A stretch of DNA of 64,000 nt from Candidatus Levyibacteriota bacterium (GTDB lineage: Bacteria; Patescibacteriota; Microgenomatia; Levybacterales; UBA12049), in assembly GCA_963790825.1 (NCBI GenBank), contig CAWBPM010000002.1:97702-161701 (forward strand), in the 5' to 3' direction. Every line of letters starts with the position of its first letter. Position 1 is the stretch's first letter. Both the position numbers and the translations under genes were made by a program. Under the pieces are notes generated by a model, which was not told where the DNA came from, made no database searches, and saw only the letters and a list, made by a program, of their open reading frames with translations. Below are positions 9,580 through 62,198 of the stretch, piece by piece.

Positions 9580-9590
9580 ATTTAAAATCT

Positions 9591-12368: not shown

Positions 12369-12425
12369 AAATATATTATACTTGAGGAATGAAAATATAA
12401 CCATAATGTGATAAAATAGCTGAGT

Positions 12426-12647
12426 ATGAAAGAGAACGAAAGTATAACTAAAGATCGTATTGTGCACGTTTTAAATACACTTTGGCAAGGGGTTGTCTTT
12501 GTTGATAGGAATGTAATAAAAAGACTTTACCGGGACAGAGGAGAAGAAGGAATTCCTGAAGAAATAAGAGCAAAAAGAGCTTTGATATGGCTTAATAAAA
12601 CCGGTGACAAGTGTGTTCAGGAGTCTATAAAAACAACAATAAAGTAA
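12426..12647 (+). CDS. small hypothetical protein
   Basis: 73-aa ORF filling the murT-htpX intergenic gap. Weak RBS and no known motif. Confidence 0.25.
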   Translation: MKENESITKDRIVHVLNTLWQGVVFVDRNVIKRLYRDRGEEGIPEEIRAKRALIWLNKTGDKCVQESIKTTIK

Positions 12648-39514: not shown

Positions 39515-39515
39515 T

Positions 39516-45766: not shown

Positions 45767-46144
45767 GTTTTATTTTGTTTAGTTTGTTGACGAATGAATC
45801 CTATTTAATATACTTATCTCATCTGTGAGTCAGATTGAAAAAGCAATTAAAAGTCCAATTCCTTGTTCGGAAGAACAAGCCTCACTTAGTAATATTCAAA
45901 GACCTACACTTGACCAGGCCAGGAGGGCAGTTAAAGAAATGGATGCATCATATACCACCCAAAGACTAAAAGGCTTCGAAGATTTAACTATTCCTAAACG
46001 AGGCCAAAATCGCATGATTCTCCAAGGCGATAATTAGTAGTAATGATACTGACTCCTTTTTTAATCGCTGCTATATAAAGAAATTATGAAGATGTTACTT
46101 AATCAGAGTGAAAAAATATGATATGAGGAGAAGAGAATTTATTT

Positions 46145-46381
46145 CTATTTCTTTTTGGATTTTCCTTTACTTGATGATTGATTTACAAGATAGAGGAGAC
46201 CGACCAGGAAACCTCCACCGATAATTGCAAAGATAACATACTTTTGCAGCATTGCAGGATCATTATATAAATAGTTTATGCTAAAGACAATCTTAACAAA
46301 AAGCACGAAAACCAATGCCAAGATAAGAAATGCTATAACTGCTTTTGCGTTACTGTTATGATTTCCTTTTTCAAGCTTCAT
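46145..46381 (-). CDS. small membrane protein (two TM helices, Lys-rich C-terminus)
   Basis: 78-aa ORF inside the segment bracketed by the 567-bp direct repeats. Confidence 0.35.
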   Translation of the reverse strand: MKLEKGNHNSNAKAVIAFLILALVFVLFVKIVFSINYLYNDPAMLQKYVIFAIIGGGFLVGLLYLVNQSSSKGKSKKK

Positions 46382-46465
46382 AATTTATTATTGATACATA
46401 CTCAACCAATTGTCAAGAGGCAATTTATTAAAGAATATAGTTTTTCCTTAGATATTAAGTAAGTC

Positions 46466-47926
46466 TCATTTTGTAAAAATTGTATAGTTACCAATATTTT
46501 TACTTTGGCTATAATGATTTTTGATAAATTGTACAATAGGACTAAGATCCTGACTATTTGTTTTTCCTAAGATAATCATTGGTACTTTTTTCTTTGTTAA
46601 ACTATTGATTATATTCTTCTGATAATTCGTTTCTACCTCGATCGGAGAAATTAAATCAGACCGTGTAGCATTTATTCTATCAGCTAAAAAATAAACTAAC
46701 GGAACATATTGATATATATAAATAAAATCGTTGGGTTTTGTTTTTGTCTGAATATACTTAGTTATCTGCATTGTTCTTTCAATTTCCTGATTAGAAAGAA
46801 AAACGTGAAGCCTGGGGTCTTGAGCGAAAGTTGTATCATACTGCATGGGAGGATTCCACCTATAATATCCGTAAAAATAAGCAGAATACAATCCAAGCCC
46901 TGTAATAAATATGAGAATAAGAAGAAAAAACTTCTTATTAAGTTCACTTTTATTATTACTGATGATAATTGCCAGGGGGAGGCAAGATATTGCAAGTAAA
47001 GGAACAAAGTGATCATAGTCGGTAGTCGGGCGTATACCAAGTAAATAAAATGTAGCAGTAAAAAGTGGTACGATTAAAAGATTTTTATTCGATTTTAAGC
47101 AAATAAAAAATGAGATAACAGAAAGTGTAAGGGGGGAAGTATAAAGAATGAATTTAAGTATTTTTATAATAAATGATCCTTGGTAAATAAATTGCGTGTC
47201 CAGAGTTTTACCGAAAAGTATCCGCTCGAAAGTATAGATATACATGTCTTTAATAAACGGCATAAATGAAGAAGTAAAAAGTAGTATTCCTGTGATTACT
47301 ATTCCGGAAGTTAAAAGACCGAACAAAAAGTAAAAAACATAGATCTTTTTTTTAAAAAAAAGAAAAGGCAAGAATGAAACGAGAAACAGACCGATACCAA
47401 AATTTTGTTTAGAAAGAAAAATCAGAATGACCATAATGCCGGACATAAAAAAGTACACCCCCTTCTGCCTAATGATTCCCAGCAAATAAAAAAATATTGT
47501 GTAGAGATAAAAGCATACTGCAAACATTGTCGGCCAGGGAAAATTGATATGAGCCGGTCCCCAGGCTATAAAAAATAAAAGCGACAACAAAACAAGAGGA
47601 ACCTTCTTGGTTATAAGTCTTACTATTTTATAGAGGGCAAAAAGTGACAACAGTGAAATAGCCAAACTGGCCAAACGTCCTGAGAATACACTCTCTCCGA
47701 ACGTATGAAGAAATACAGAGGTAATGAGAAATGATAGCGGAGTATATGTAACATCAAAATCCCGATATGGAACTTGTCCATGCACGACCCTTAGTGCAGA
47801 GTTTAAGATATACCCCTCATCCGAATATATTATTCCTTTAAATTGGAAAAAAATAAGAATATTAAGAAGTACCAATATAAAAAAAAGAAACAGTAAATTG
47901 TTTAGAGAAAATAATTTATCTCTCAT
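46466..47926 (-). CDS. GT-C fold glycosyltransferase, ArnT/PMT (GT39/GT83)-like polytopic membrane protein
   Basis: IIYSDEGYILNSALRVVHGQVPYRDFDVTYTPLSFL resembles the DE...Y...A...G.W..P motif of ArnT/PMT-family enzymes in the first periplasmic loop. More than 10 TM helices and a soluble C-terminal domain. Located between duplicated pilin genes. Confidence 0.5.
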   Translation of the reverse strand: MRDKLFSLNNLLFLFFILVLLNILIFFQFKGIIYSDEGYILNSALRVVHGQVPYRDFDVTYTPLSFLITSVFLHTFGESVFSGRLASLAISLLSLFALYKIVRLITKKVPLVLLSLLFFIAWGPAHINFPWPTMFAVCFYLYTIFFYLLGIIRQKGVYFFMSGIMVILIFLSKQNFGIGLFLVSFLPFLFFKKKIYVFYFLFGLLTSGIVITGILLFTSSFMPFIKDMYIYTFERILFGKTLDTQFIYQGSFIIKILKFILYTSPLTLSVISFFICLKSNKNLLIVPLFTATFYLLGIRPTTDYDHFVPLLAISCLPLAIIISNNKSELNKKFFLLILIFITGLGLYSAYFYGYYRWNPPMQYDTTFAQDPRLHVFLSNQEIERTMQITKYIQTKTKPNDFIYIYQYVPLVYFLADRINATRSDLISPIEVETNYQKNIINSLTKKKVPMIILGKTNSQDLSPIVQFIKNHYSQSKNIGNYTIFTK

Positions 47927-48075
47927 AAGTATGACAAGTATATAGGAAAAGGATTTTTCTTTCCATCGAATTAGTTTCTGGTTTCATTTACTATAATTCG
48001 TTTTACCCTGTTTGTTGATATTTTCTTATTTTTACTTGATTCTATTTACCTTAAATTTAGCTTCCGTTATGTTTC

Positions 48076-48642
48076 CCTTTATTTTCCCTCTTGACAATTA
48101 GGAAAAGGATATGATTTACTAAATGCAGAGATATGAAAACAACTGCCCCGATAAATAAACTAGCTAAAGGTTTTACCCTCATCGAGCTCTTAGTTGTTAT
48201 CGGCATTTTAGCAATTCTTTTGGCAATCACCTTAATCGCAATTAATCCGGCCAGACAATTCTCCCAGGCAAATAATACAAAAAGAAGCAGCGATGTGAAT
48301 GCTATTCTTAATGCCGTCAATCAGTATATGGCAGATAATAAAGGTGCTCTTCCCACAGGTATTAGTACGACAGCCCAGACGATTAACGGAGTAGATTTTG
48401 GAGCCATGTGCACTGCATTGGTTCCTACATATATAGCCGCACTTCCGGTAGATCCATTATCTAATGCAAATGCGGTACAGTCTACAGATTGCACGAGTAC
48501 TACATGGAATACAGGATACGTAGTACAGCAGTTAACAGGTGGCAGCAATAGGCTTACGGTATCCGCACCGGGAGCAGAGCTGGGGGCCACTATCTCCGTA
48601 ACCAGATAAAGAGTTTCTCCTTATTAATTTAATTATTATTAA
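48076..48642 (+). repeat. 567-bp perfect direct repeat, copy 2
   Basis: Identical to 45200-45766 (offset 2876 bp). Confidence 0.85.
48133..48609 (+). CDS. pilA: type IV major pilin, exact duplicate of 45257-45733
   Basis: Encoded protein identical over all 158 aa. Lies inside repeat copy 2. Confidence 0.8.
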   Translation: MKTTAPINKLAKGFTLIELLVVIGILAILLAITLIAINPARQFSQANNTKRSSDVNAILNAVNQYMADNKGALPTGISTTAQTINGVDFGAMCTALVPTYIAALPVDPLSNANAVQSTDCTSTTWNTGYVVQQLTGGSNRLTVSAPGAELGATISVTR

Positions 48643-49268: not shown

Positions 49269-50297
49269 ATGTCTTTGCCTAAAATATCTGTAAATATTCC
49301 ATTTCGTGTAACAGGTAATGCAAATATTGCCCTCAAATCTCTCCTCTACGTTGATTATCCAAAACAACTTTTTGAAATAATTCTTATAGAAGGAAATCAG
49401 CCGGCAGCTCAGCGCAACGCGGGTATTCGTCTATCAAAAGGTGATATTATTTATTTTTTAGATAACGATTCAAGAGTTAGAAAAAACTCGCTGCGTCTAA
49501 TAGCAAATGAGTTCTCATACTCTTCTGCAGCAGCTCTTGGAGGCCCTAGTCTTACATACAATCAAGGCAAGAATGATCTCAGTCAATTAATTGGTTTTGC
49601 TTTAGAAACCTTTTTTGGTTCACTTCGCATGCGTTATCGTTACAGCAAAAAAACAACGGGTGAAGCATCAGAATATGAACTAATCGGAGCGAATCTCGCA
49701 ATGCGCAAAGCTGTTTTGAATAAGGTTGGCGGATTTGATGAAAGGTTTTATCCAAATGAAGAGACTGAGCTACTCAGAAGACTTAAAGATAAAGGGTATA
49801 TTTTGCAATACAAAAGAGAACTATTTATCCATCGGAAGCACAGAAAAGATCTGAGTGAGCTGACGAAGCAATTTTATCAATATGGAAGCGGGCGCATGAA
49901 GCAAATTAGGATAAACCCAAAGATAGAAGATATATTATTTATACTACCGGTTTTGTTCGAGGGCTATCTCATTACTCTTATTTTTTATCACACGCTTTTT
50001 TACGTATCTCCACTTCTTTTCTATTTGCTGCTTGCAATTACTACTTCAGTAAAAGCTGCTATTAAATACAAACGGCCTGATTTATTTTTTTCTTTGCCTC
50101 CACTTTTCTTACTTATCCACCTTTCTTACGCTACCGGTGAAATTACAGAGTATTTAAAACCCTTGTTTAATAAGCAACTGAAACTTCCTAAGCGTACCAT
50201 TAAACATAAGATTAAAGCGATTAAAATAAAAACGTATACAGAGGAGCTTTCCAGTGTTGAGAAACTTATTTCTTTTCAGCCAAAACGAGGTAATTAA
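49269..50297 (+). CDS. glycosyltransferase family 2 protein with C-terminal TM helices
   Basis: GT-A fold motifs (IILIEGNQP...DNDS...) in the first ~230 aa, then a membrane-embedded C-terminus. Confidence 0.6.
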   Translation: MSLPKISVNIPFRVTGNANIALKSLLYVDYPKQLFEIILIEGNQPAAQRNAGIRLSKGDIIYFLDNDSRVRKNSLRLIANEFSYSSAAALGGPSLTYNQGKNDLSQLIGFALETFFGSLRMRYRYSKKTTGEASEYELIGANLAMRKAVLNKVGGFDERFYPNEETELLRRLKDKGYILQYKRELFIHRKHRKDLSELTKQFYQYGSGRMKQIRINPKIEDILFILPVLFEGYLITLIFYHTLFYVSPLLFYLLLAITTSVKAAIKYKRPDLFFSLPPLFLLIHLSYATGEITEYLKPLFNKQLKLPKRTIKHKIKAIKIKTYTEELSSVEKLISFQPKRGN

Positions 50298-51048
50298 AGC
50301 ATATTGTATGAGATGGAAATATTTTATCGAGCAAGATGCAGAGATAAGAAAATGCAAGAAGAATAGGATAAAAAAGCAGTGCGAACAAGTAGAAAATTTT
50401 GTTTTTGTTTGCTATCTCAATAAGATAATCCATTAGTAATACAATAATTGTAGAAAAAATAGAACCTTCCTTTACTACTTTTAGTACCGTACATTGATTC
50501 CTATCAAATAATTTACGCAAGCCATATTCAGTAAAACGGAAATAATCTCTTGGGATCTCATGAAGACTCCAGGTTAGTGGGGCGCTGATAAGAATCTTCC
50601 CTCCTTTTTTTACCACCCTAACCATTTCACGAACACATAACTCAGGATTGGAATGATGTTCAAGGACTTGAAAAGAAACAACAGTATCAAAATTATTATC
50701 TTTAAATGGCAAGAGCAAAGATTTTTTATAATTGTTATCAAAAAATAGATCTGGTTTTTCACCAAGGATTCCTTTCGACCTTGAATAGTCGGGAAAATCA
50801 ATACCAACATAACTACTAACAGCAGAAAAAACTCCCTGATAGGGTTTTTCTCCACAACCAACGTCCAGTAATTTTCCATAAAATTTGTATCTGTGCGCTA
50901 GTAGTTTAATATCGCGTAGTAAGTAATATTTAGCTAAAAAATGAGGGGCTATGAGAAAATAAAGCGGTTGCAAACTCTTCCCAAAAGATTTTACAAATCC
51001 GGAGGCCTCAATAATACGCTTATTTTTTATATTTTTTTTCATTATCAA
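50266..51048 (-). CDS. class I SAM-dependent methyltransferase
   Basis: Motif I LLDVGCGEKPYQ. 260 aa with a C-terminal hydrophobic segment. Convergent 32-nt overlap with the GT2 gene. Confidence 0.6.
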   Translation of the reverse strand: MIMKKNIKNKRIIEASGFVKSFGKSLQPLYFLIAPHFLAKYYLLRDIKLLAHRYKFYGKLLDVGCGEKPYQGVFSAVSSYVGIDFPDYSRSKGILGEKPDLFFDNNYKKSLLLPFKDNNFDTVVSFQVLEHHSNPELCVREMVRVVKKGGKILISAPLTWSLHEIPRDYFRFTEYGLRKLFDRNQCTVLKVVKEGSIFSTIIVLLMDYLIEIANKNKIFYLFALLFYPILLAFSYLCILLDKIFPSHTICFNYLVLAEKK

Positions 51049-51056
51049 AATTAATT

Positions 51057-52229
51057 TTAATCATACATTAATAATTGGTACATTGCAGAATATAATTTTT
51101 CTCTATTGAATCTATTTTGTATAAAAGATTGTATCGCATGACGATTAAAAGGAGTACCATTTATACAATAAATAATCTTATTAATAAATTGTTCCTTATT
51201 CTTAACTAAATAGCCATTTTTATTGTTAACTATTATATCATTACACCCCTGAATATTATAGGAAATGACTGGTAATCCTAAACTTTGCGCTTCGAGTAAA
51301 ACATAAGGAAAACTTTCCCATTTACTGGTACAAAGCAGCAAATCATTGTCTTGGTATACATTCGCCGTAGCTTTATTTTCTATATATCCTAAATAATGAA
51401 CATTTGACCATTTTTTACTCAGTTTTATGATATCTTTTCTCAACTCTCCGTCGCCCGCAATATTCCATACAATCTTATTTTGATAACCTGAACTATTCAT
51501 GCTATCTATAATTTCAATCAAGTCGAACACTCCTTTTTGTTCAGTCAGCCTTCCGATCCAAAGCAAAGCAAAGGTACCTTTTTTGCTGGTAATTTTAGTT
51601 TTACTAATCGTAGCCTTATGAGAGAAATAGGAAAAGTCAAATGGGTGATATATTTTTTGTATTTCTTGTTTAGGTATTAATTTCGTTAATCTTTCCTCAT
51701 CAAATGTATTCATAACATGCAGTCTTAATGCTCCGGATAAAGCAAATTTATAAATCAGCGAGGAGTAAAGCAGATTATGCAGTTTTGACTGTAACGATTT
51801 TGTAATCGGATAAAAGGATGGAATATGGAGTCCATAAATAACAGGAGGAAGATTTTTGTAACCAATAACATATTTCAAAAGAATGACTTCTAGAAGATTA
51901 TTCGAACTGTAGATTACATCAAATTTACCCAGTTTCTTTTGCATATCTTTTAATCCTGAAACAGTAACATAGCGGACATCTCCCAATTGTTTTTTAATAT
52001 GTCCGCTTTTTTCTTTATATATTTTTCTATCTTGCAAACCTAAAAAATAAATATTATAGAAAAAAAGAGTTTTTTGCAGCATTTTTTCATCAAATGTCAA
52101 AATAGTAATATCCAAATCAGGATATCTTTCTTTTATACCGGTGGCAGTATCGATAAAATATTTTGCTAGCCCGCCGCCATATTCAAGCAGTAAGTAGTTA
52201 AAAAAAACAATCTTCATATTTCTAGTCAA
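51057..52229 (-). CDS. glycosyltransferase family 1/4 (GT-B) protein
   Basis: C-terminal E-X7-E-like region FPYVLLEAQSLGLPVISYNIQGCNDII typical of GT4 retaining transferases. Confidence 0.65.
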   Translation of the reverse strand: MTRNMKIVFFNYLLLEYGGGLAKYFIDTATGIKERYPDLDITILTFDEKMLQKTLFFYNIYFLGLQDRKIYKEKSGHIKKQLGDVRYVTVSGLKDMQKKLGKFDVIYSSNNLLEVILLKYVIGYKNLPPVIYGLHIPSFYPITKSLQSKLHNLLYSSLIYKFALSGALRLHVMNTFDEERLTKLIPKQEIQKIYHPFDFSYFSHKATISKTKITSKKGTFALLWIGRLTEQKGVFDLIEIIDSMNSSGYQNKIVWNIAGDGELRKDIIKLSKKWSNVHYLGYIENKATANVYQDNDLLLCTSKWESFPYVLLEAQSLGLPVISYNIQGCNDIIVNNKNGYLVKNKEQFINKIIYCINGTPFNRHAIQSFIQNRFNREKLYSAMYQLLMYD

Positions 52230-54279
52230 TTAATTTATTTCTAATTGCGGATTTTACATATGTATTCTCTGTAATATCCTCATTAAATTTAGCTTTGTAA
52301 TTTTGCTTGAATTTCTGAATCGTTAACGGAGTAACGTGACATTCTTTATCTAAAATATAGAGCTGGCCATAATATGTTCTCCAAATAGAGTAATTGATTA
52401 TTGCCTTTTTCATATTAGAAAGGGAATTAATACAGTCCTTGCTTCCTTTAAACTGGCTAATTGCCAGACCCGAATATGCGCTTGGATTTTGTTCATCGAT
52501 CCGGATAGCTCTTTGGTAATAGTTTTCTGCAGTTTTCGGATCGTGATAAAAAGACATGAGAAAATCTCCGGCCCGGACCAGAGTATTGGAGTAAAATGAA
52601 GGAATTTCGGGGGTAATGAGACCATCTTCGTCTAATTGTAATTCGTCGAGTCTGACAGGGTGCATGATTTTCCAATTATCCTCGAACGCTTGTATGTAAT
52701 CGGCTTTTTTGTAAACTGTTTTATTACTAATTATCTCACCCACCAAACCTCTTGGTAATAAATAAAATCCTCTCGGAACAAATGAGACATCAAAAGTGGC
52801 GTATAATTTTCTATTCTTGCTTATTTCCTGAAGTGTGTTATTTAAGACATTTTTTAGTTTAACTGCGGGATGAGATTTATGATATTTATTAATTTCCAGG
52901 TCAAGATACACATTCCCGCCGACTCCCAGAGGATTAATAATGTCTACATCCGGTCTGAACTTAACGACGAAATGCTCATACCAGATATTAAAAGTAGTTG
53001 TATCTCCAGATACAAGAAGAACAGAATTTTCAGGAAGTTCACTTAAAATATCTTTCGCATACGTATTACCGATCTGAGTGTGAGACATATCGGTTTTCTG
53101 AAAATTATAATAGATTAAATCAAACGGAATGAGCAGGAAATAGGCCAGAATTAGAGTGGTGTATATCTTTTTTGAAAGCTTTGAGTCCAATAATTCCTTA
53201 AGATAAAGAAAACCAAAAGGAACAAGAAGCATAAAAATAACATAAGGAAGAACATAAAAGCGTTCACTAATTCCCCAGGAAGTCGTAGTAGTAATAACAG
53301 GTGCAGAGTAATATACAAAGAACGGGCCGGATAAAAGAAAAGACAGAAGAATACTGATCAGAAGCAGTTTATTTTTTTTGTAGAGCTTTATAATTCCTAA
53401 GAGCGCAACAGCACAGATTTGATATGAAAAGGTAGCAATCAGAGTCTTGAAAAAATCTCCCACAACAATTAGTTTCACCCGTGTCGGGATCTGATCCACG
53501 AGGCCGGGTGCAGTTCCGTAATCTTTTCTTAAGATAAGATCCAGAAAATTTTTTAGGCTCGATGGATTATCCCAATTAACAATCGGGTTGGATAATGCGC
53601 TAAACGGTACGTAGATATAAGGTGATAGTCCCAAGAAAAAGAATAAAAAAGCAATAAAAATGTGTCTTCTTTGTGAAAAAATAACCGACGATCTTAAAAA
53701 AAGTAAAAAAAGAATTCCGGGAAAAATAAGAATAATAGTCTGGTGATGTGTCAGAGATAATCCGCAAAAAAATGAAAGCAAATAAAAATAGCGAATCTGT
53801 TTATCTTGGTAAAATACATAGGTAAAATAAAAAATAATAATTACAAAAAGATTGTTCAGACCAAATACTTCGGGAATTTCTGCATGCAGCCAGAAATAAT
53901 AAGAAAATGCTAAAATCGCAGTCGAAAGAAGAGAGAGAAAGAAATTTTTTGTAATTCTGTAAGATAATTTATAAAAGAAAATAAGGCCGATAAAGGAAGC
54001 AATCGTTGAAACCAATGCAACTTTTGTGACCGGCGGGAGAGAAATTGGTAGATGAGAAAAGAGAAAACCCAACATAATAAAAAGCGGATATCCCGGGGGA
54101 TGGGCAATGCCATGAAAAAAAGATGCGGTTACCAAATCTCCAATATCGCCACTATAGATATCTGAAGTTATGTTATGAAGGTAAAGGCCAAGAATAAGCC
54201 CAAAAAAAACAAATAAGACAATCTTTCTAACCTGGTTAGTCACAGGTACTATTATAGCAACACCGGTACTCCTTGACAT
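52222..54279 (-). CDS. GT-C fold glycosyltransferase-like membrane protein (DUF2723/PMT_2-like) with C-terminal TPR region
   Basis: SGDIGDLVTASFFHGIAHPPGYPLFIMLGFLF contains the HPPGYP signature recalled for DUF2723. About 12 TM helices, then a soluble C-terminus with TPR-like repeats (YYQRAIRIDEQNPSAYSGLAISQF). Confidence 0.5.
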   Translation of the reverse strand: MSRSTGVAIIVPVTNQVRKIVLFVFFGLILGLYLHNITSDIYSGDIGDLVTASFFHGIAHPPGYPLFIMLGFLFSHLPISLPPVTKVALVSTIASFIGLIFFYKLSYRITKNFFLSLLSTAILAFSYYFWLHAEIPEVFGLNNLFVIIIFYFTYVFYQDKQIRYFYLLSFFCGLSLTHHQTIILIFPGILFLLFLRSSVIFSQRRHIFIAFLFFFLGLSPYIYVPFSALSNPIVNWDNPSSLKNFLDLILRKDYGTAPGLVDQIPTRVKLIVVGDFFKTLIATFSYQICAVALLGIIKLYKKNKLLLISILLSFLLSGPFFVYYSAPVITTTTSWGISERFYVLPYVIFMLLVPFGFLYLKELLDSKLSKKIYTTLILAYFLLIPFDLIYYNFQKTDMSHTQIGNTYAKDILSELPENSVLLVSGDTTTFNIWYEHFVVKFRPDVDIINPLGVGGNVYLDLEINKYHKSHPAVKLKNVLNNTLQEISKNRKLYATFDVSFVPRGFYLLPRGLVGEIISNKTVYKKADYIQAFEDNWKIMHPVRLDELQLDEDGLITPEIPSFYSNTLVRAGDFLMSFYHDPKTAENYYQRAIRIDEQNPSAYSGLAISQFKGSKDCINSLSNMKKAIINYSIWRTYYGQLYILDKECHVTPLTIQKFKQNYKAKFNEDITENTYVKSAIRNKLID

Positions 54280-54313
54280 TCATCAGTATCCATGTTACGA
54301 TTTTCTTTAAGTT

Positions 54314-54697
54314 ATGGCAAGAATTTTAGTTGTCGAAGATGACCTTTTTATCCGCGAATTATATGTAGAAACATTAACCTCCGAAAAATATGAAGTGGAA
54401 TACGCGGTTGATGGGCAAGATGCATTTAAAAAAATTAAGCAGGGAGGGTACGATCTTATTCTGCTGGATATTATTATGCCCAAAATGGATGGACTAACTG
54501 TTATGAGAAAAATTGCCAAAGACCCCCCGCAAAAGCCAAATAAATTAGTAATTTTTCTGACAAACCTCGACGATTCGGATGAGATAAGGCAGGCACTTGA
54601 GCTGGGTAACGGATACCTCATAAAAAGCCAGTTAACTCCGGCCGATTTATTAAATGAAGTAAAAATGGATCTGGAGAAACTTCCTGCCGCTTCTTAA
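54314..54697 (+). CDS. response regulator receiver-only protein
   Basis: MARILVVEDD...DLILLDIIMPKMDGL...IFLTNL receiver motifs. 127 aa. Confidence 0.7.
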   Translation: MARILVVEDDLFIRELYVETLTSEKYEVEYAVDGQDAFKKIKQGGYDLILLDIIMPKMDGLTVMRKIAKDPPQKPNKLVIFLTNLDDSDEIRQALELGNGYLIKSQLTPADLLNEVKMDLEKLPAAS

Positions 54698-54717
54698 AAT
54701 TCTAAAATATAAAATAT

Positions 54718-55758
54718 TTATTTTTTTAATTGTTCCTTAAAGTAATCAACCCAGGGATTTATAGCAGGATTTAGGTCTAAGCGGAGAGCAAGATAAAATG
54801 TAAGAAAGCTTCCATAAGCGAGCGTCTGCATAAAATCATCGTAAACAGTAGCGCCCGAGGTTTGAAACTCATGAATTTCATGCTTATTCTTGCGAACTAC
54901 CTCCATTGTGAGTGCCATGCGTTTTACAATTTTTACTGAGTAATTAAATGAGTTAAGAATAAGAAAATGAAGATTATTCTTTTTTGGGAACTGCAGGCCT
55001 TCCATAAGATGGTGATTTAGGTCCGGTACCAGGTAGAAAGCAGAAAACGTTTTACTAGTCTCATTGAATTGATTACGTAAAATCTGTCCGTTACCCGAAA
55101 GATGTTCGGCCGCGAAAATGACCGGAATTTTCTCCATAAAAATTTCGCTGTCTTGCATTGCTCGTTTTTGCAACTCCGAAAATTTTTCTTTCAACCGTAA
55201 AATGGCATTTGTAATCTCCTGCTCATTCACAGTAATAACCCTTGATTTATTTAATAGACCCAAAAGCCCAAGTATCGTATAGCCGTTTCCCAGTCTTGGG
55301 GTGCCGGCGGGATTAAGTGCGCCATCAAAAATATAAGCAGGTATATTATTCTTTTCGGCAAATTCTGCTAATGGTCCGCCTTTGCTGAGCACAAGCATTT
55401 TTGCATTTTTCGCCTTCGCTTCTTCTGCGCAGGAAAGAACCTCCTCGGTAGTTCCGGAATAGCTGGTGAGGACTACCAGGCTTTCCTGATTGACAAAAGT
55501 CGGTAAATGGTAATCTGTAACTATTTCAGTAGGATAGGCCATCCCAGAGCCCTGCAGGGCCTTGGTAACCAGTGCTCCGTAAATGGATGCGCCCATGCCG
55601 CAAAATACTATGTTTTTAATATTGGTAATAGGTTGAATTGGAAGCAATTGTACTTGCTGCCAAGCAGTTTTAAGCTGCTCTGCCAAAAGCATAGTTGACG
55701 CATACGTATCCTGCGGATCAATTTTCTTTATAGCTTCTGTGTCAGTTAGATTTTGCAT
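54718..55758 (-). CDS. bifunctional phosphoglucose/phosphomannose isomerase (SIS-domain, PGI/PMI family)
   Basis: SIS-domain motifs (VFCGMGASIYGALV, VLTSYSGTTEE) in a 346-aa protein. Adjacent to the cupin and phosphomannomutase genes. Confidence 0.6.
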   Translation of the reverse strand: MQNLTDTEAIKKIDPQDTYASTMLLAEQLKTAWQQVQLLPIQPITNIKNIVFCGMGASIYGALVTKALQGSGMAYPTEIVTDYHLPTFVNQESLVVLTSYSGTTEEVLSCAEEAKAKNAKMLVLSKGGPLAEFAEKNNIPAYIFDGALNPAGTPRLGNGYTILGLLGLLNKSRVITVNEQEITNAILRLKEKFSELQKRAMQDSEIFMEKIPVIFAAEHLSGNGQILRNQFNETSKTFSAFYLVPDLNHHLMEGLQFPKKNNLHFLILNSFNYSVKIVKRMALTMEVVRKNKHEIHEFQTSGATVYDDFMQTLAYGSFLTFYLALRLDLNPAINPWVDYFKEQLKK

Positions 55759-56226
55759 TTACTTCTCTCCTCTTTCAACTTTGCGTTGCTCCGGAGTCTC
55801 GTCAGGACGTTTATAATCATCCTCAAGCCTAAGAGTTGTTCCCCGTTCGGGTGTTGAGACTTCAATAATATCGCAATCGGTAATTCCCACAAGCCGGTGT
55901 TTTTGCCCGAGTAGACACGTATAGCCAACATTGGGTTGTAGCTCGGTTTCTATGAGTTCTCCCTTATTGTTTTCCCAAACAACCTTTCCCCGCCCATTCA
56001 TAATCATCCAGCTTTCCTGCTTTTGATCATGCACTTGAAGTGACAAGCGGCAATTAGCCTTGATATGTAATATTTTCCCCATATAGGGAAGATTTATTGG
56101 TGTAAAGTGAAGTTCATAACCCCAGGGCTTCTCCACCTGTTTCGCATATGAGTCATTTGAAAAAGAGAATTTGTCTATTGTTTTTAAATCAAACATAGGA
56201 AAGAAGAAACTATTTTTTAAGTTCAC
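55759..56226 (-). CDS. cupin-domain protein (mannose-6-phosphate isomerase type II C-terminal-like)
   Basis: Cupin_2 pattern PWGYELHF...LSLQVHDQKQESWMIMNG...EVSTPE. 155 aa. Confidence 0.55.
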   Translation of the reverse strand: MNLKNSFFFPMFDLKTIDKFSFSNDSYAKQVEKPWGYELHFTPINLPYMGKILHIKANCRLSLQVHDQKQESWMIMNGRGKVVWENNKGELIETELQPNVGYTCLLGQKHRLVGITDCDIIEVSTPERGTTLRLEDDYKRPDETPEQRKVERGEK

Positions 56227-57592
56227 TTATTTTTTTAATAAGTTCGTCTCGTTTCTCTTCCATAACTGATTTGTCGTATGCTTCAACATTCAAGCGAAGC
56301 AATGGCTCAGTATTAGACGTACGAACATTAAATCTCCAGCCAGGATAGCTAACTGATATCCCATCAAGTGTAACTAATTCTCCGTCACTGTATTTCTCTT
56401 TCAATCCGTTAAGAATTTCCTGTGCATTCGTTACTGTAAAATTAAATTCACCAGACTCATAACTCCGTCTCAGCTCATCAACCACCTGAGATAAAGTCTT
56501 ATGTTCTTCTGTAAGCACTTTGAGGACGCTAATAATTGTTGCTAACTGTGATTCAGCGTTCCCATTTGATTGATAGTAGAAATGCCCTGAAGATTCTCCG
56601 GCAAAAATTGCACCTGTTTTACCCATTTCTTCAGTAATAAAAGCATGCCCAACTTTAGTAATACCGGATTTTCCGCCAAGCTCATTCACAATTTTCTGTG
56701 ATTGTAGGATATACCTAATATCAAACAAGATCGTAGCACCTGGTTTTTCCTTCAAAAGCTCCCTCGCAACCAATGCTGTAATCATGGTTGCCGTAACCAC
56801 CTGACCTTTTTCGTCAATAAAATACAAACGATCACCATCTCCATCGGGAGCTAACCCGAAATCAGCTTTTTCTTCAAGAACTTTTTTCTGTAAATCTTTT
56901 AAGTTGTCAAAGTTTAAAGGATCCGGTTGGTGAGCCGGGAAACTGCCATCAAGATTGAAATTCATTTTTATCAAATCTGCCGGAACTGTTTCAAATAACG
57001 CTTCAATATATTGTGCACCCATCGCATTTGCCGGGTCAGCCACGATTTTGAATTTTTTTAGCGTTGGATTAGCAAATAGCAATAAAGCGTTTACAACCTC
57101 ATCTTTTAAGATTCCCTCCTTCTTCGTTACTGTCCCCGACGTTTTTGGGGTTATTGTCACTCCTTCCATTGCCATATTTTTTATCTCCTCCATTCCTGTA
57201 GATTTACCAATTTTTATGAGACCTTGAGGACTATATATAACAAACTTCATGCCATTGTATTCCTTCGGATTATGTGAAGCTGTTACTTGGATACCGCAGT
57301 CGTACTTATAATGAAACACAGTGAAATAAAATGAAGGGGTAGAGAGTTGTCCGGCGTCAATTACCGCTGCTCCCATTTCAACCAGTGTCTTTTTAGCTGC
57401 CTCGAAAAGCTGTGGTCCTGAAAGACGCATATCATAGGCCAAAACAACGGTCGGATTTTGTTTATGTAGCCTTTCAGAAAAGAATTTGAAGATTGCCTGT
57501 GTGATTGGAATGATGTTTATCTCATTAAACTGCTCGGGGTATACTCCTCGCAGGTCGTAGGCCTTAAAAATTTTAGGATCAATGTCAGCCAT
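56210..57592 (-). CDS. phosphomannomutase/phosphoglucomutase
   Basis: Active-site loop TASHNPKEYNGMKF, metal-binding DGDGDR, and sugar-binding GESSGH. Confidence 0.8.
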   Translation of the reverse strand: MADIDPKIFKAYDLRGVYPEQFNEINIIPITQAIFKFFSERLHKQNPTVVLAYDMRLSGPQLFEAAKKTLVEMGAAVIDAGQLSTPSFYFTVFHYKYDCGIQVTASHNPKEYNGMKFVIYSPQGLIKIGKSTGMEEIKNMAMEGVTITPKTSGTVTKKEGILKDEVVNALLLFANPTLKKFKIVADPANAMGAQYIEALFETVPADLIKMNFNLDGSFPAHQPDPLNFDNLKDLQKKVLEEKADFGLAPDGDGDRLYFIDEKGQVVTATMITALVARELLKEKPGATILFDIRYILQSQKIVNELGGKSGITKVGHAFITEEMGKTGAIFAGESSGHFYYQSNGNAESQLATIISVLKVLTEEHKTLSQVVDELRRSYESGEFNFTVTNAQEILNGLKEKYSDGELVTLDGISVSYPGWRFNVRTSNTEPLLRLNVEAYDKSVMEEKRDELIKKISELKK

Positions 57593-57601: not shown

Positions 57602-58300
57602 TTAAATCTCAAGCAATAAAAAGTCAATTGCGCTGCTGAGAGGAGTAAGAAGCGTACCTGTTTTTTGAGCGAGGTCAAGCTCAAAAAGCTTTTGATAAAT
57701 TGCTTTAAGTTCGGAAGAAGAGAATGCTTTTGCCTGTCGCTCTAATTTTCCTCTTTGCCAGGGGGCAAGCCTTTTTACTTCCTCAATAGCCTCTTCGGTT
57801 TCTTCCCGAAGCGCAAGAAGCAAACGGAATTGACGAATCAGCATAAAAAAAACAATCTCTTCCTGATTGGTTTTAAGCAGATCCTTAAAAAGTGTCAGCA
57901 TTATTTTGTGATTTTTCGGTTTTATGCTGTCTAAAAAAACGAACAATGTTTTCGGATAGTGAAAATTTTTACAACTAGCTTCTTTCCAAAAAACGATTGA
58001 CCTCTTATCTATTTCTTTTCCTTCCCAAAGGTATATATCAGTGTCTTTTGCGCTTTTCTGTATCTGCTCTTTAATCGCATCCAGCTCCTTGCCGGTTTTT
58101 CGTTTGGATAACAGCAGCTCGATAAAAATGCCGCCTGAGGAAGAGAAAAGATCACTTCCGCCGGCAGCTTGGATAAGATCGGTGAGCGTCATTTTTTCAC
58201 CATCCAGGGATACGTTTTTCCCGTCCTGCTCCTTTATAGATAAATAAAACTTTCTCGATGTTACGATGTCTTCCCCATGAATAATAGTAAGCATAATCAA
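57602..58300 (-). CDS. holA: possible DNA polymerase III delta subunit (short form)
   Basis: N-terminus IIHGEDIVTSRKF resembles the holA start (YLLYGEE..L). The rest is helical with a delta-like layout. 232 aa is short for the family. Call is from memory of family patterns only. Confidence 0.35.
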   Translation of the reverse strand: MIMLTIIHGEDIVTSRKFYLSIKEQDGKNVSLDGEKMTLTDLIQAAGGSDLFSSSGGIFIELLLSKRKTGKELDAIKEQIQKSAKDTDIYLWEGKEIDKRSIVFWKEASCKNFHYPKTLFVFLDSIKPKNHKIMLTLFKDLLKTNQEEIVFFMLIRQFRLLLALREETEEAIEEVKRLAPWQRGKLERQAKAFSSSELKAIYQKLFELDLAQKTGTLLTPLSSAIDFLLLEI

Positions 58301-58680
58301 TGGTTTGCTGTTTTTTTCTTATATTCCTTAAAAAGCCTACCGGCCAGAGTATCCAGATGTCTTGCTCTGGTTCTATGCGGAAGGAGAGCGCCGGAAAAAT
58401 TTTTGGGGATATGTAAAATCTCATGAATAAGTACTTTTTTCTTTTGGTCTTCGTCAAGACGGTCGTAATACTTTGTTAATACCTCGATTACATAGGCAGG
58501 TTCTACACTTAGAGCATCTTGGAAGATTTTCGGAAATCCCCAGGTTCTGGCATATGCCCGCGCTTTTGAGCCTGAGGTACGGTAACAGAAGATTCTGTCC
58601 ATATTAATATGCGGCAAGTCCAGAATTGCCAAAATTTTTATAAGGTCTTGCCTAACATCGGGCGCGTTATTCCATTCCAT
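58297..58680 (-). CDS. putative zinc metallopeptidase (HExxH; SprT/DUF45-like)
   Basis: KKKVLIHEILHIPKNFSGALLPH contains HEILH plus a downstream His. Confidence 0.35.
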   Translation of the reverse strand: MEWNNAPDVRQDLIKILAILDLPHINMDRIFCYRTSGSKARAYARTWGFPKIFQDALSVEPAYVIEVLTKYYDRLDEDQKKKVLIHEILHIPKNFSGALLPHRTRARHLDTLAGRLFKEYKKKTANH

Positions 58681-59960: not shown

Positions 59961-62198
59961 ATGAATGATCTACCTGAACTTTTAACACTGCGTGAGGCAA
60001 GTATTGTACTTAAAGTTCATCCAAACACGCTAAGACTTTGGGATGAGAAAAATATTCTGAAAGCAATACGGATTGGACAAAGAAAAGTACGTAGATATAG
60101 AAAAAAGGATATATTTAAGCTGCTGGAAGGAAATCAGAATAGTAAAAAACGCGACGACAAATCACAAGAGGCTATTCCTAAGCGGCAAGCTCTCGACAAT
60201 CTGGCAAATTATAAAGCAATAATTTTTTCTTCCCATGATGCAATTATTGGAAAAACACCGGACGGCATAATCACGAGCTGGAATCCTGCTTCTGAAAAAC
60301 TATACGGGTACACGGCAGCGGAAATTATTGGTAAATCAATTCTGACCATTTATCCTAAAGGACAAAAACAGGAGTTTTTGGAAATTATGCGAAAAATTAG
60401 ATCCGGAGAAAGAATTGATCACTACCAAACAACTAGAGTACGAAAAGATGGAAAAAAGATACATGTATCGGTGAGTATTTCGCCGGTTAAAAATCAAGAA
60501 GGAGTAATTGTAAATGTTTCGACAATAGCCAGAGACATAACCAAGCAGAAGCAGGTAGAAGAAAAGCTAAAGTTTCTAACTGCAGTTACAAAAGAGTTAG
60601 CCACATCAGTTCACAGTAGAGTAACGCTTAATAAAGTCCTTAGTGTTATTGTGCCATTTCTGGCCGATTATTGCAGAATAGCAATAGTAAATCACAAACA
60701 AACAGTTAAAGAGATTATTGTCGTCCATAAAGATCCGAAAAAACTTACTTTGGTAAAAAATCTCAATAAAAAATATAAGAATTTTCGCGAAACTTCCATG
60801 GGCATTCGTGGTCTGCTAAGAACGGGAAAGCCTCAGCTGTTGACTACTTTAAATAAGAAAATCCTTGAAAAATACCCGGTTCCTGATGATATACAAAAGG
60901 TTGTAAAAAAATTAAACCTGAAATCATACATGGGAATTCCACTTATCGTTCGGGGGAAGATAATTGGGGCAATGACCTTTTCATCTATTTCCGAGGACCG
61001 GCTCTATACTAATGAAGATTTGGAATTAGCGCAAGAGATCGGGAGACAAATTGCTCTTATGATCGATAATAACAGACTATACCAGGAGGCACTTCGGGAA
61101 ATAAGAGATCGGAAAAGGATTGAGGAAAAAATAAAACAGAACGAAGAGCGGTTCCGTGTTCTATTTGAGCACAGTGCGGATGGTATTACTATACTTGACA
61201 AGTCGGGAAAAAGAATATACGCAACACCCTCCAGAAAAAATATTCTCGGCTGGGACCCAAAGGAAGGTTATAAAGATAATATTTTCAAAATTCTCCACCC
61301 GGATGATGTAGTGAGAATAAAAAAAGATTTTGCGCAAGTACTCCAAAATCCCAAAGAAAGCATCACAACTACCTTCCGGGTTAGGCATAAAGAAGGGGGT
61401 TGGGTATGGGTGGAAGCTACGGGAACAAACTTACTGCATATCCAGATTATCGGGGGGGTGGTTATTAATTATCGGGATATTACTGAAAGAAAACAGATAG
61501 AAAATAGGAAAGATGATTTTATCAGTATGGCAAGTCATGAACTAAAAACTCCGGTGACATCAGTGAAAGCTTTTGCTCAAATACTGCAAAAACTCCCCGA
61601 GATACAGAATACAAAATCAAAAGTATACCTTGAAAAGATGGATACGCAGATTAATAAACTTACGAAATTAATTATTGATCTTTTGGATGTATCCAAAATT
61701 CATAAAGGCAAACTGGACTTTCGAGAGGAGAAATTTGATTTCGATCAGCTGGTTGAGGAAACCGTCGATACTATTTCGCAAACCGTATCGACCCACAGGA
61801 TACTGATTGAAGGGAAGACAAATAGCAAAATTATCGGTGATACTGATCGGATTAGTCAGGTGATTATTAACCTTTTAACAAACGCTGTTAAATACTCCCC
61901 GAAGGCGGATGAAGTTATCGTGCGATTGGCAAGAAGTAACAATACGGTAATCATGGCAGTCCAGGATTTCGGTATCGGAATCCCCGTGAATCATCAACAA
62001 AAAATATTTGAGCGTTTTTACCGAGTAAATGAATCTGAAGACAGATCTTTCGCGGGACTGGGAATCGGCCTTTATATCTCGTCTGAAATTATCAGTCGTC
62101 ATGGAGGAGAGATGTTTGTAAAAAGTAAAACAGGCGAGGGGTCAATATTTTCTTTTATATTGCCAATAAAACAAAAAAAGACACTAAAAACTGCGTGA
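59961..62198 (+). CDS. multi-sensor histidine kinase with N-terminal MerR/excisionase-type HTH (HTH-PAS-GAF-PAS-HisKA-HATPase)
   Basis: HTH: LTLREASIVLKVHPNTLRLWDEKNILKAIRIGQRKVRRY. PAS regions at ~85-200 and ~395-510, with a GAF-like segment between. H-box FISMASHELKTP. N/G boxes LLTNAVKYSP and GIGLYISSEIISRHGGEMFV. 745 aa, no TM helix. Confidence 0.7.
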   Translation: MNDLPELLTLREASIVLKVHPNTLRLWDEKNILKAIRIGQRKVRRYRKKDIFKLLEGNQNSKKRDDKSQEAIPKRQALDNLANYKAIIFSSHDAIIGKTPDGIITSWNPASEKLYGYTAAEIIGKSILTIYPKGQKQEFLEIMRKIRSGERIDHYQTTRVRKDGKKIHVSVSISPVKNQEGVIVNVSTIARDITKQKQVEEKLKFLTAVTKELATSVHSRVTLNKVLSVIVPFLADYCRIAIVNHKQTVKEIIVVHKDPKKLTLVKNLNKKYKNFRETSMGIRGLLRTGKPQLLTTLNKKILEKYPVPDDIQKVVKKLNLKSYMGIPLIVRGKIIGAMTFSSISEDRLYTNEDLELAQEIGRQIALMIDNNRLYQEALREIRDRKRIEEKIKQNEERFRVLFEHSADGITILDKSGKRIYATPSRKNILGWDPKEGYKDNIFKILHPDDVVRIKKDFAQVLQNPKESITTTFRVRHKEGGWVWVEATGTNLLHIQIIGGVVINYRDITERKQIENRKDDFISMASHELKTPVTSVKAFAQILQKLPEIQNTKSKVYLEKMDTQINKLTKLIIDLLDVSKIHKGKLDFREEKFDFDQLVEETVDTISQTVSTHRILIEGKTNSKIIGDTDRISQVIINLLTNAVKYSPKADEVIVRLARSNNTVIMAVQDFGIGIPVNHQQKIFERFYRVNESEDRSFAGLGIGLYISSEIISRHGGEMFVKSKTGEGSIFSFILPIKQKKTLKTA

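Follow-up and report, generated by a model that had tools for sequence, protein, structure and literature searches.

The gene directly 3' of pilA in Pseudomonas aeruginosa encodes TfpW, a GT-C glycosyltransferase with 11 transmembrane (TM) helices and a TPR domain which glycosylates the pilin (Kus 2008; bioRxiv 10.1101/2020.04.19.049825). Type IV pilins are also the substrates of TfpO/PilO and PglL, which act on the outer side of the inner membrane, and tfpO too lies directly 3' of pilA, but these enzymes (Wzy_C) belong to another, O-antigen-ligase-like fold family and move an Und-PP-linked oligosaccharide en bloc. In the three-component glycosylation of teichoic acids and O-antigens, a cytoplasmic GT2 (CsbB/GtrB) charges polyprenyl phosphate and, with a flippase, supplies a GT-C enzyme (YfhO/GtrC) that transfers the sugar outside the cell, the acceptor being a polymer and not a protein (PMC5836110). 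Human TMEM260 adds one mannose, without elongation, and cryo-EM and mutagenesis have assigned D52, H67, Y267 and R355 to mannose binding, R264 to phosphate binding and D441 to the role of catalytic base (PDB 9rql/9rqm/9rqn; PMC10214176; bioRxiv 10.64898/2026.03.17.711096). Its acceptors are the IPT domains of plexins, MET and RON.

Here we describe a Candidatus Levyibacteriota locus from an ultra-small CPR bacterium of Roizmanbacteria-like type, contained in a 64-kb stretch of DNA (the window), in which a TMEM260-like gene neighbours type IV pilus genes. Comparison of sequences suggests, with a probability of about 0.55, that the TMEM260-like enzyme O-mannosylates, or relatedly O-glycosylates, the adjacent type IV pilins.

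Gene organisation

The initial annotation described one glycosylation cluster downstream of the pilins, consisting of GT2, SAM-dependent methyltransferase (MT), GT4, a large GT-C with TPR, and a PMI-cupin-PMM set. All of these ORFs in 49269-57592 are present with the expected Pfam domains (Table 1), and three 158-aa prepilin genes precede them. They do not form a single cluster: the GT2 gene lies on the plus strand, and a plus-strand receiver gene that had been missed is transcribed divergently from the TMEM260-like gene and stands between the TMEM260-like-GT4-MT operon and the PMM-cupin-PGI/PMI genes, so that the region is divided into separate transcription units. The minus-strand ORF at 54307-54621 ("orf104") was rejected as a gene, being an antisense shadow of the receiver gene. 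The end of the TMEM260-like gene and the start of the GT4 gene share 8 nt. GT2 begins 25 bp 3' of prepilin B, and GT2, MT and GT4 occupy the gap between prepilin B and the TMEM260-like gene, which is convergent to the pilins, some 3 kb off (2.98 kb from prepilin B), and is not co-transcribed with them. Promoter and terminator scans of the region returned nothing above chance.

Table 1. Coordinates of pilus, glycosyltransferase and neighbouring features in the window.
Feature	Position	Strand	Matches and remarks
TPR-containing GT-C candidate	23424-25109		PMT_2 18.6 bits vs cut-off 26.1
pilB, type IV pilus motor ATPase	39902-41584	+	T2SSE + MshEN
pilC, type IV pilus platform	41581-42630	+	T2SSF
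Minor-pilin-like gene 1	42635-43150	+	N_methyl/PilX_N
Minor-pilin-like gene 2	43154-43672	+	N_methyl/PilX_N
Minor-pilin-like gene 3	43680-44078	+	N_methyl/PilX_N
Conserved 371-aa protein	44081-45196	+	no family match
567-bp perfect direct repeat, copy 1	45200-45766		pilin A gene and flanks
Major prepilin A, 158 aa	45257-45733	+	N_methyl 32.9 bits; class III signal G/FTLIE
ArnT/PMT_2-like GT-C candidate, 486 aa	46466-47926	-	PMT_2 27.4 bits vs cut-off 26.1
567-bp perfect direct repeat, copy 2	48076-48642		pilin A gene and flanks
Prepilin A', 158 aa	48133-48609	+	DNA identical to A
Prepilin B, 158 aa	48768-49244	+	86% aa, 79% nt identity to A
GT2	49269-50297	+	PF13632, 69.7 bits
SAM-MTase	50266-51048	-	PF08241 (Methyltransf_11), 54.8 bits; last gene of operon
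GT4 (GT-B)	51057-52229	-	PF00534, 102.8 bits
TMEM260-like GT-C, 685 aa	52222-54279	-	PF11028 84.5 bits; PMT_2 30.4 bits
Single-domain response regulator (receiver)	54314-54697	+	PF00072, 82.8 bits
PGI/PMI, bifunctional type	54718-55758	-	SIS + bact-PGI_C
Cupin, PMI-type	55759-56226	-	PF01050, 32.3 bits
PMM/PGM, four-domain	56210-57592	-	Pfam; under every NCBIfam cut-off for PMM/PGM/GlmM

The minor-pilin-like genes and the gene for the 371-aa protein have homologues in the same order in four related loci (L001, L002, L086 and L088), and no pilT, pilD or pilM homologue was found in the window. The C-terminal half of prepilin A is rich in Ser/Thr, and the protein is 65-76% identical to the pilin adjoining the TMEM260-like module in relatives. 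Many of the differences between prepilins A and B add or remove Ser/Thr. A separate short-read contig (L081), corresponding to window positions 45737-48105, stops 30 nt inside each copy of the repeat that carries pilin A.

The TMEM260-like protein

The 685-aa GT-C protein had been likened to TMTC/PMT enzymes, and this identity has to be replaced. TMEM260_N (PF11028) matches residues 45-197 well above its gathering cut-off of 24.2 bits, and homologues of the protein carry TMEM260_2 (PF28495) alongside it. A phmmer comparison aligned residues 25-450 to residues 32-465 of human TMEM260 (9rql_A; E=1.7e-38), which takes in the TM core together with the first part of the luminal domain, and a profile of 26 homologues matched the human protein at E=1.2e-62. 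Membership of the actinobacterial/fungal PMT (GT39) or metazoan TMTC1-4 (GT105) families was rejected, as there was no match to PF02366 (PMT), MIR or the TMTC-specific domain and only a clan-level match to PMT_2.

Residues D45, H60, R251, Y254, R340 and D426 align to human D52, H67, R264, Y267, R355 and D441, so that all six donor-binding and catalytic positions are conserved. In 35 pilus-linked homologues D45, H60, R251 and D426 are invariant (35/35 each), while Y254 is found in 34 and R340 in 32; the six positions are likewise invariant or nearly so in alignment A2. The AF2 model (pLDDT 87.9) has helices to residue 396, an alpha/beta region at 403-520 and helical repeats at 525-684. This corresponds to about 11 TM helices, a Rossmann-like domain and a TPR domain, the latter two presumably extracytoplasmic, which is also the plan of human TMEM260. 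Structural matches of the model were GT-C folds and TPR proteins, with PglB/STT3 the best by Foldseek. The C-terminal TPR, which the initial annotation had recognised in two of its GT-C candidates, is weak here in Pfam (TPR_11, 21.3 bits) and clear in profile and fold searches; in the 23424-25109 protein it is solid. Translation of the 685-aa protein may in fact begin at codon 13, a GTG.

Judged by sequence, the homology of this bacterial protein to TMEM260, the protein O-mannosyltransferase of metazoans, is of orthologue grade, and the protein is predicted to be a polyprenyl-phosphate-mannose:protein O-mannosyltransferase. It differs from the human enzyme in being bacterial, with its active side presumably to the cell exterior, and shares about 30% identity with it at most. 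In place of dolichol-P-Man it would use a bacterial polyprenyl-P-sugar, and it would act on a type IV pilin, not on an IPT domain; its gene is coupled to GT4, MT and GT2 genes.

Association with pilus operons

The gene was followed through 80 related loci carrying TMEM260-like genes. In 27 of them an ORF with a prepilin motif is found no more than 110 bp away, and in 32 no more than 750 bp away, and all 27 of the closely linked loci have titles or context of the CPR/Patescibacteria type; titles among the linked records include Levy-, Woese-, Gottesman-, Curtiss- and Buchananbacteria, Paceibacterota and 'Patescibacteria group'. Where the label clearly names another phylum (Elusimicrobia, Verrucomicrobia, Gemmatimonadetes, Planctomycetota and others), no such ORF occurs within 110 bp, and the only records with a non-CPR label to have one at all are L069, L072 and L073, at 0.6-5 kb. 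The typical order in CPR-type operons is pilB, pilT-like, pilC, major pilin, TMEM260-like gene, pilD and minor pilins, so that the gene is flanked by those for the major pilin and the prepilin peptidase (A24 domains confirmed). The spacing of 3-110 bp at this position is maintained across lineages whose enzymes are 25-50% identical. In other CPR pilus operons the neighbours of the TMEM260-like gene include small GT2 genes and GT-C genes of the YfhO-like and PMT_2 types, and extra GT-C or GT2 genes are frequent at this position. Pilin adjacency persists where the orientation is inverted (the window, L001, L002, L086-L088). The whole receiver/TMEM260-like-GT4-MT/GT2-pilin module recurs in the Roizmanbacteria-like loci L086, L087 and L088 at about 45-55% identity, and the divergent receiver/TMEM260-like pair is found in these as well as in L002 and L001.

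As the same gene occurs inside pilus operons across the CPR, it most likely glycosylates pilus subunits, an argument from guilt by association. From the gene content, family membership, residue conservation, fold and synteny described here we infer a pilin acceptor, mannose as the sugar and the roles given to GT2, GT4 and MT.

A rather unlikely alternative is that the enzyme is a general extracytoplasmic (or S-layer/cell-envelope) protein O-glycosyltransferase for which pilins are one of many targets or none, its operon position reflecting co-regulation of surface structures. Non-CPR homologues without pilin neighbours, often arranged as tandem GT-C paralogues, fit this explanation, as do a Roizmanbacteria paralogue (L056) that is not pilin-linked and the divergent promoter region of its own that the window gene has beside the receiver gene. 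Retention of the pilin/peptidase position and its spacing despite divergence of the enzymes, and survival of pilin adjacency in inverted orientation, speak against it.

The proposed pilin glycosyltransferase resembles TfpW, by the published description of the latter, in being the product of a pilin-accessory gene by the major pilin gene, in size (about 650-690 aa), and in having a cytoplasmic N-terminus, 11 TM helices, an acidic motif in the first outer loop and a large extracytoplasmic TPR region. Both would use a lipid-phosphate-sugar donor made by genes possibly located elsewhere. TfpW-like adjacency to the major pilin is seen in the 27 closely linked loci, and the larger distance in the window recurs with the same layout in L086-L088. 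Unlike our protein, TfpW transfers D-Araf oligomers and needs DprE1/E2-type genes; no DprE1/DprE2-type genes occur among the Pfam-scanned window proteins, and inspection of the 685-aa sequence by eye showed no YX6PFX7P, the proline motif of TfpW. A pilin-adjacent GT-C glycosyltransferase is thus already known in TfpW, and by analogy the present cluster appears to be a further variant.

Partner enzymes

GT4 is a kept partner of the TMEM260-like gene (47% identity in L086, 43% in L087, 47% in L017), MT homologues adjoin the TMEM260-like gene in L086 (48%) and L017 (44%), and the pilin-GT2 pair is kept in L086, L087 and L088 (50-54%). L001 retains the TMEM260-like gene and the pilin and has GT4, a DegT aminotransferase and three GT2s between them. 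Set against the window-type module, this arrangement resembles a glycan island whose content varies while its ends are conserved, and the amino-sugar gene suggests that the sugar may differ between lineages. The GT2 of the window is a membrane protein with a DND motif at residues 65-67 and C-terminal TM helices. Its AF2 model (pLDDT 88.9) has a minimal cellulose-synthase/hyaluronan-synthase-like fold with BcsA, HAS and TarP/S among the best Foldseek matches and PcManGT only at rank 42, so that in the model it resembles processive membrane synthases more than polyprenyl-P-sugar synthases.

These partners raise a second alternative, in which the pilin receives a whole glycan and not one mannose donated by polyprenyl-P-mannose. 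Working on a polyprenyl carrier on the cytoplasmic side, GT2, GT4 and MT would assemble a short methylated glycan, which would be flipped and moved en bloc to the pilin, as by PglL/TfpO or PglB. The TMEM260-like gene has GT4 and MT as translationally coupled and conserved partners, one source names the GT2 ExoA-like, the island of L001 holds a different set of glycosyltransferases, and PglB/STT3 head the structural matches. The single, non-elongated mannose that human TMEM260 adds offers no explanation for cytoplasmic GT4 and MT enzymes so tightly coupled to the gene. No protein of the 39.9-57.6 kb region matched the Wzy_C (O-antigen ligase) domain. We regard this oligosaccharyltransferase as improbable.

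Donor supply and other GT-C candidates

The PGI/PMI, cupin and PMM genes, which the initial annotation had made part of the pathway, abut or overlap holA and two other minus-strand genes and adjoin the TMEM260-like module in only one of six close relatives (L086). They are a possible source of mannose-1-phosphate for the glycosylation genes and constitute a loosely associated housekeeping operon with holA. The suggested search for a GDP-mannose pyrophosphorylase (NTP_transferase/ManC) and a polyprenyl-P-mannose synthase (DPM1/GtrB-type GT2) found neither among the Pfam-scanned proteins of the window, nor was a GtrA/Wzx flippase present among them, which leaves gaps in the donor pathway within the window and sets the locus apart from three-component systems, although the scheme of a GT2 that loads the carrier inside and a GT-C that transfers outside would be common to both.

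Three GT-C enzymes had been proposed, of which the TMEM260-like protein is solid, the 486-aa protein narrowly exceeds the PMT_2 cut-off and the membrane part of the 23424-25109 protein is sub-threshold. Neither of the last two has a pilus link in relatives. The 486-aa gene sits in a 2309-bp segment of 31.5% GC flanked by the pilin repeats; its product has no PDB sequence match and an hhalign probability of 35% to the TMEM260-like profile. Its homologues in the relatives examined stand in unrelated contexts without pilins, and it is missing from L001, L002, L017 and L086-L088. These comparisons indicate that the segment is a lineage-specific insertion. The 23424-25109 gene lies beside lexA/mazG/DedA.

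In a compact genome, genes for central hexose-phosphate metabolism, pilins and unconnected envelope glycosyltransferases could come to lie together by chance, which would account for this insertion, for a PMM-cupin-PGI/PMI set co-oriented with holA and a metallopeptidase-like gene, and for promoter and terminator scans with nothing above chance. The TMEM260-like/pilin link and the GT2/GT4/MT module in relatives far exceed chance adjacency, and the core of this very improbable explanation is largely refuted; it survives only where the PMM set and the 486-aa GT-C are concerned. That the 685-aa protein serves, without catalysis, in pilus assembly or anchoring, using its TPR like PilF/PilW, with the nearby sugar genes coincidental, is hardly credible, for although TPR proteins are known in pilus biogenesis and PilF is among the weak TPR matches, the donor-binding and catalytic residues are kept, glycosyltransferase genes co-vary with the gene, and further GT-C or GT2 genes often share its place in CPR-type operons.

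The pilus-linked O-mannosylation or glycan pathway of the initial annotation is thus partly supported, through TMEM260 homology, embedding in CPR pilus operons and co-travelling GT2/GT4/MT genes, and not through the other two GT-Cs or the mannose genes; the conclusion holds largely on grounds other than those first given.

Proposed function

In the mechanism we propose, a polyprenyl-phosphate-hexose, most likely mannose, would be bound by the GT-C TM core on the outer side of the cytoplasmic membrane. The extracytoplasmic TPR domain would capture an extended stretch of the membrane-anchored prepilin or pilin, and the Rossmann-like domain would offer Ser/Thr to the conserved Asp base, so that the three major pilins (45257, 48133 and 48768) would be O-glycosylated ahead of pilus assembly. 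The co-inherited GT2, GT4 and MT may play an accessory part by making the lipid-linked donor or glycan or by modifying it, and PGI/PMI, cupin and PMM could feed mannose-1-phosphate.

More broadly, and more tentatively, bacterial TMEM260/DUF2723 may be an ancient part of the type IV pilus operon in Patescibacteria (CPR) and O-mannosylate pilins from polyprenyl-P-mannose, a system to which Roizmanbacteria-like lineages have added a variable GT2/GT4/MT island and in which, here, pilin duplication captured a second GT-C. If true, this would give the bacterial branch of the TMEM260/DUF2723 family its first function and offer a model in bacteria for TMEM260, the human disease enzyme. It would also mean a CPR-wide modification of the pilus, with possible effects on pilus mechanics, on evasion of phages or on recognition of the host by these episymbionts.

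A TMEM260 family enzyme among the glycosylation genes

The 685-aa membrane protein encoded downstream of the pilins (see table) is a member of the TMEM260 family. It matches human TMEM260 (PDB structures) in a phmmer search (E=1.7e-38, residues 25-450), and a profile built from 26 of its homologues matches the human protein at E=1.2e-62. The structure of human TMEM260 assigns roles to six residues: D52, H67, Y267 and R355 touch mannose, R264 the phosphate, and D441, located in the Rossmann-like luminal domain, serves as catalytic base; an extended acceptor peptide is bound by the TPR domain (bioRxiv 10.64898/2026.03.17.711096). These residues correspond in the phmmer alignment to D45, H60, Y254, R340, R251 and D426 of the window enzyme, all of which vary little or not at all across the 26 aligned sequences. 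Among 35 pilus-linked homologues, D45, H60, R251 and D426 are each present in 35, Y254 in 34 and R340 in 32. All family features that can be examined in silico were found. The initial annotation had likened the TPR-bearing GT-C proteins to TMTC and PMT enzymes; for this protein PMT (GT39) and TMTC are rejected in favour of TMEM260. Look-ups in the protein collection turned up neither its exact sequence nor a 673-aa version starting from GTG at codon 13; the top match is 53% identical. A recorded 751-kb contig encodes proteins identical to the pilin-adjacent GT2 (P0187) and to GT-C486, a 486-aa GT-C candidate (P0121).

Positions of features in the window
Feature	Position	Strand	Basis or detail
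MurT/GatD-like pair	10291-12467	-	peptidoglycan amidation type
pyrG (CTP synthase)	17739-19382	+	N-terminal GGVISGIGKA; CTP_synth_N fragment 17997-18386; further fragments; GATase fragment 18939-19382
Multi-TM + TPR protein	23424-25109	+	TPR domain solid; GT-C signal below threshold
DedA/VTT-domain gene	25126-25755	-	
Pyruvate phosphate dikinase	36735-39000	-	PPDK_N 37921-39000; PEP-utilizers + PEP-utilizers_C 36735-37982
Hpt protein + receiver	within 39113-39884	+	
567-bp direct repeats	45200-45766 and 48076-48642		pilin A gene + flanks
GT-C486	46466-47926		PMT_2 threshold passed narrowly
GT2	49269-50297	+	ORF + domain scan
SAM-methyltransferase (MT)	50266-51048	-	ORF + domain scan
GT4	51057-52229	-	ORF + domain scan
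TMEM260-like, 685-aa membrane protein	52222-54279	-	PF11028, 84.5 bits
Response regulator, receiver domain	54314-54697	+	82.8 bits
PGI/PMI, bifunctional type	54718-55758	-	ORF + domain scan
Cupin, PMI-type	55759-56226	-	ORF + domain scan
PMM/PGM, four-domain	56210-57592	-	ORF + domain scan
Phage-metallopeptidase-family gene	58297-58680	-	
Histidine kinase	59961-62198	+	HTH-PAS-GAF-PAS

Gene content and transcription units

The window is low in GC (~0.31-0.43). It derives from a CPR bacterium, since its proteins have their nearest homologues in Candidatus Roizmanbacteria, Microgenomates and Patescibacteria. ORFs and domain scans bear out all the genes first listed between 49269 and 57592. A minus-strand ORF at 54307-54621, considered as a small flippase-like gene, is the antisense of the plus-strand receiver gene; as the receiver gene is real and this ORF spurious, the region comprises four units by the spacing and overlap of its ORFs, and the cluster is not one unit. 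Pilin B and, after 25 bp, GT2 form the first (+); the TMEM260-like, GT4 and MT genes form the second (-), with 8 nt of overlap at one junction and 8 nt of spacing at the other; the third (+) is the receiver gene alone; and the fourth (-) strings together a 391-aa gene, a metallopeptidase-like gene, holA, PMM, cupin and PGI/PMI. Scans for promoters and terminators gave counts equal to those of shuffled sequence, with no excess over chance, so operon calls were made from spacing and overlap only.

The type IV pilus cluster upstream contains pilB, pilC, three minor-pilin-like genes, a gene for a conserved 371-aa protein and three prepilins of 158 aa each, two identical and the third 86% identical. 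When the window was searched with proteins of related loci for pilD, pilT and pilM, pilB was the sole match. An Hpt protein and a receiver are encoded directly upstream of pilB, and with the histidine kinase gene, signalling genes flank the pilus and glycosylation region on both sides. The lone second receiver gene, divergent from the TMEM260-like gene, is kept in five related loci (L086, L087, L088, L001 and L002). The phage-metallopeptidase-family gene has the same orientation as holA and is conserved in L086 and L001.

Pilus linkage across related loci

One genome per species was scanned with an alignment of TMEM260-like homologues, which yielded 80 loci; a scan of the same collection with the single 685-aa protein found no relative. 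Pilus linkage was scored in two independent ways, by homology to window proteins and by a class-III signal motif scan, and both gave the same split of the 80 loci. At 27 loci the TMEM260-like gene has a prepilin ORF no more than 110 bp away, and at 32 no more than 750 bp away. The pilin-linked loci carry titles including Levy-, Woese-, Gottesman-, Curtiss- and Buchananbacteria, Paceibacterota and Patescibacteria. Several are titled 'uncultured Gammaproteobacteria' yet are CPR-type in content; many MAG records so titled (L001-L012 and others, CAZ*/CAY*) have CPR-like gene content and best matches, and these titles look unreliable. The motif scan found no prepilin ORF at loci clearly labelled Elusimicrobia, Verrucomicrobia, Gemmatimonadetes, Planctomycetota, Chloroflexota and others, and three non-CPR-labelled records (L069, L072 and L073) have one at 0.6-5 kb. 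A rival reading is that the enzyme acts on a broader protein or envelope target.

The usual gene order is pilB, a shorter PilB-related ATPase that is probably PilT-like, pilC, major pilin, TMEM260-like gene, prepilin peptidase (A24 domains confirmed) and minor pilins. In some loci the TMEM260-like gene is followed by inserted PMT_2, YfhO-like or GT2 genes. Between it and pilD, other CPR pilus operons encode a 720-760-aa YfhO-like protein on the opposite strand or a 380-400-aa PMT_2-like protein (L018, L019, L024, L029, L031, L033 and L057, ~11.9-14.1 kb; L006 and L009-L011, ~12-13.1 kb), and L038 and L046 have GT2s there instead; CPR pilus operons thus seem to gather extracytoplasmic glycosylation genes at this site. 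Since enzymes of the pilin-linked loci are just 25-50% identical to the window protein, the pilin/TMEM260-like arrangement is old.

The conserved module and its bystanders

Closer relatives, at 46-53% identity, share the window layout. L086 is complete, running from metallopeptidase-like, holA, PMM, cupin, PGI/PMI, receiver, TMEM260-like, GT4, MT, MT, GT2, pilin and pilin through minor pilins to pilC. L087 and L088 retain receiver, TMEM260-like, GT4, (MT), GT2 and pilin but no PMM set, and in L002 the TMEM260-like gene is convergent to a pilin 16 bp away. In L017 (Woesebacteria), GT4 (47%) and MT (44%) are also paired with the TMEM260-like gene. The shared layout indicates that GT2, GT4 and MT belong with the enzyme and pilin. 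This part of the initial cluster holds; the hexose-phosphate genes (PGI/PMI, cupin, PMM), missing from the L087 and L088 loci, are only loosely associated with it. L001, the closest relative in the genome collection, keeps the TMEM260-like and pilin ends (5170-10164) around an island of GT4, a DegT aminotransferase and three GT2s; this difference from the window suggests lineage-variable glycans. The conserved functional module is therefore receiver, TMEM260-like-GT4-MT and GT2-pilin, and the other parts of the cluster are bystanders or recent insertions. Coincidental gene juxtaposition stays tenable for the PMM set and GT-C486 alone.

GT-C486 lies with two small ORFs in a 2309-bp segment of 31.5% GC, flanked on either side by a copy of a perfect 567-bp direct repeat. 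The repeat junctions are real, because a short-read contig from an independent assembly (L081), equal to window 45737-48105, ends 30 nt inside each repeat. The segment could be lost or amplified via homologous recombination. None of the six close relatives has the GT-C486 gene, which is a recent, lineage-specific capture. Its proposed tie to the pilus is rejected, as the three homologue contexts viewed were all unrelated. Of the three GT-C enzymes first named, only the TMEM260-like protein stands firmly: GT-C486 falls just above the PMT_2 threshold and the protein beside lexA, mazG and a DedA gene falls below the GT-C threshold. Neither is supported as a TMEM260-like homologue, their alignment being limited to the TPR or a marginal N-terminal stretch. 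The DedA/VTT-domain gene abuts that of the multi-TM and TPR protein at 23424-25109; as DedA proteins have been implicated in the recycling of polyprenyl phosphate, a GT-C enzyme would be a fitting partner.

Other window features include a pyrG in at least five pieces in different frames, likely a pseudogene or the result of local frameshifts, unlike other long window genes, which are intact. Pyruvate phosphate dikinase occupies two overlapping ORFs, either a split gene or a frameshift. A MurT/GatD-like pair is also present.

Donor supply and proposed mechanism

A scan of the window proteins found no NTP_transferase (ManC), DPM1/GtrB-like GT2 or GtrA/Wzx-like flippase; the GDP-mannose pyrophosphorylase and polyprenyl-phosphate-mannose synthase that the initial annotation proposed to seek are thus not found within the window. 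The predicted model of the pilin-adjacent GT2 (pLDDT 88.9) is nearest to BcsA and hyaluronan synthase (TM-score ~0.6), followed by TarP/TarS and the archaeal mannosyltransferase PcManGT. With this fold, no PDB sequence match and weak profile matches, a GtrB/DPM1-type polyprenyl-phosphate-sugar synthase is not supported. The PMM/PGM protein scores under every NCBIfam equivalog cut-off.

From the observed family, residues, fold and synteny, we infer that the TMEM260-like enzyme uses a polyprenyl-phosphate-hexose donor at the outer leaflet, with mannose the favoured sugar since all TMEM260 mannose contacts are kept. The TPR domain would hold an extended stretch of the membrane-anchored pilin, and D426 would activate Ser/Thr for sugar transfer. 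GT2, GT4 and MT may make or tailor the donor or the glycan. Alternatively, given these neighbours, the enzyme could transfer an oligosaccharide en bloc. The protein might also have a non-catalytic role in the pilus, a reading that must face the conserved active-site residues.

Significance

Among the surface machines of CPR/Patescibacteria, type IV pili are the best conserved, and the episymbiotic life of these bacteria requires them. An experimental study of Saccharibacteria pili only predicted pilin O-glycosylation and called the machinery unexplored (PMC11623550). The nearest functional precedent is Pseudomonas aeruginosa TfpW, likened here by its published description: a 646-aa GT-C with 11 TM segments and TPR, encoded directly after pilA, that arabinosylates pilin (bioRxiv 10.1101/2020.04.19.049825). 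In the searchable literature just one paper, on the discovery of TMEM260, mentions DUF2723, giving bacterial homologues a single clause, "distant homologs in bacteria" (PMC10214176), and neither DUF2723 nor TMEM260 is linked to pilins or CPR pili. Pilin-adjacent GT-C glycosylation is already known; what would be new, judging from sequence, is that TMEM260 orthologues perform it and are conserved across CPR pilus operons. If so, the enzyme of CPR pilin glycosylation would be named, and its donor and catalytic residues predicted. The human member of the TMEM260 family underlies a congenital syndrome of heart and kidney, and the window would then offer a simple pilin and enzyme pair, open to testing, for the family of this disease protein.
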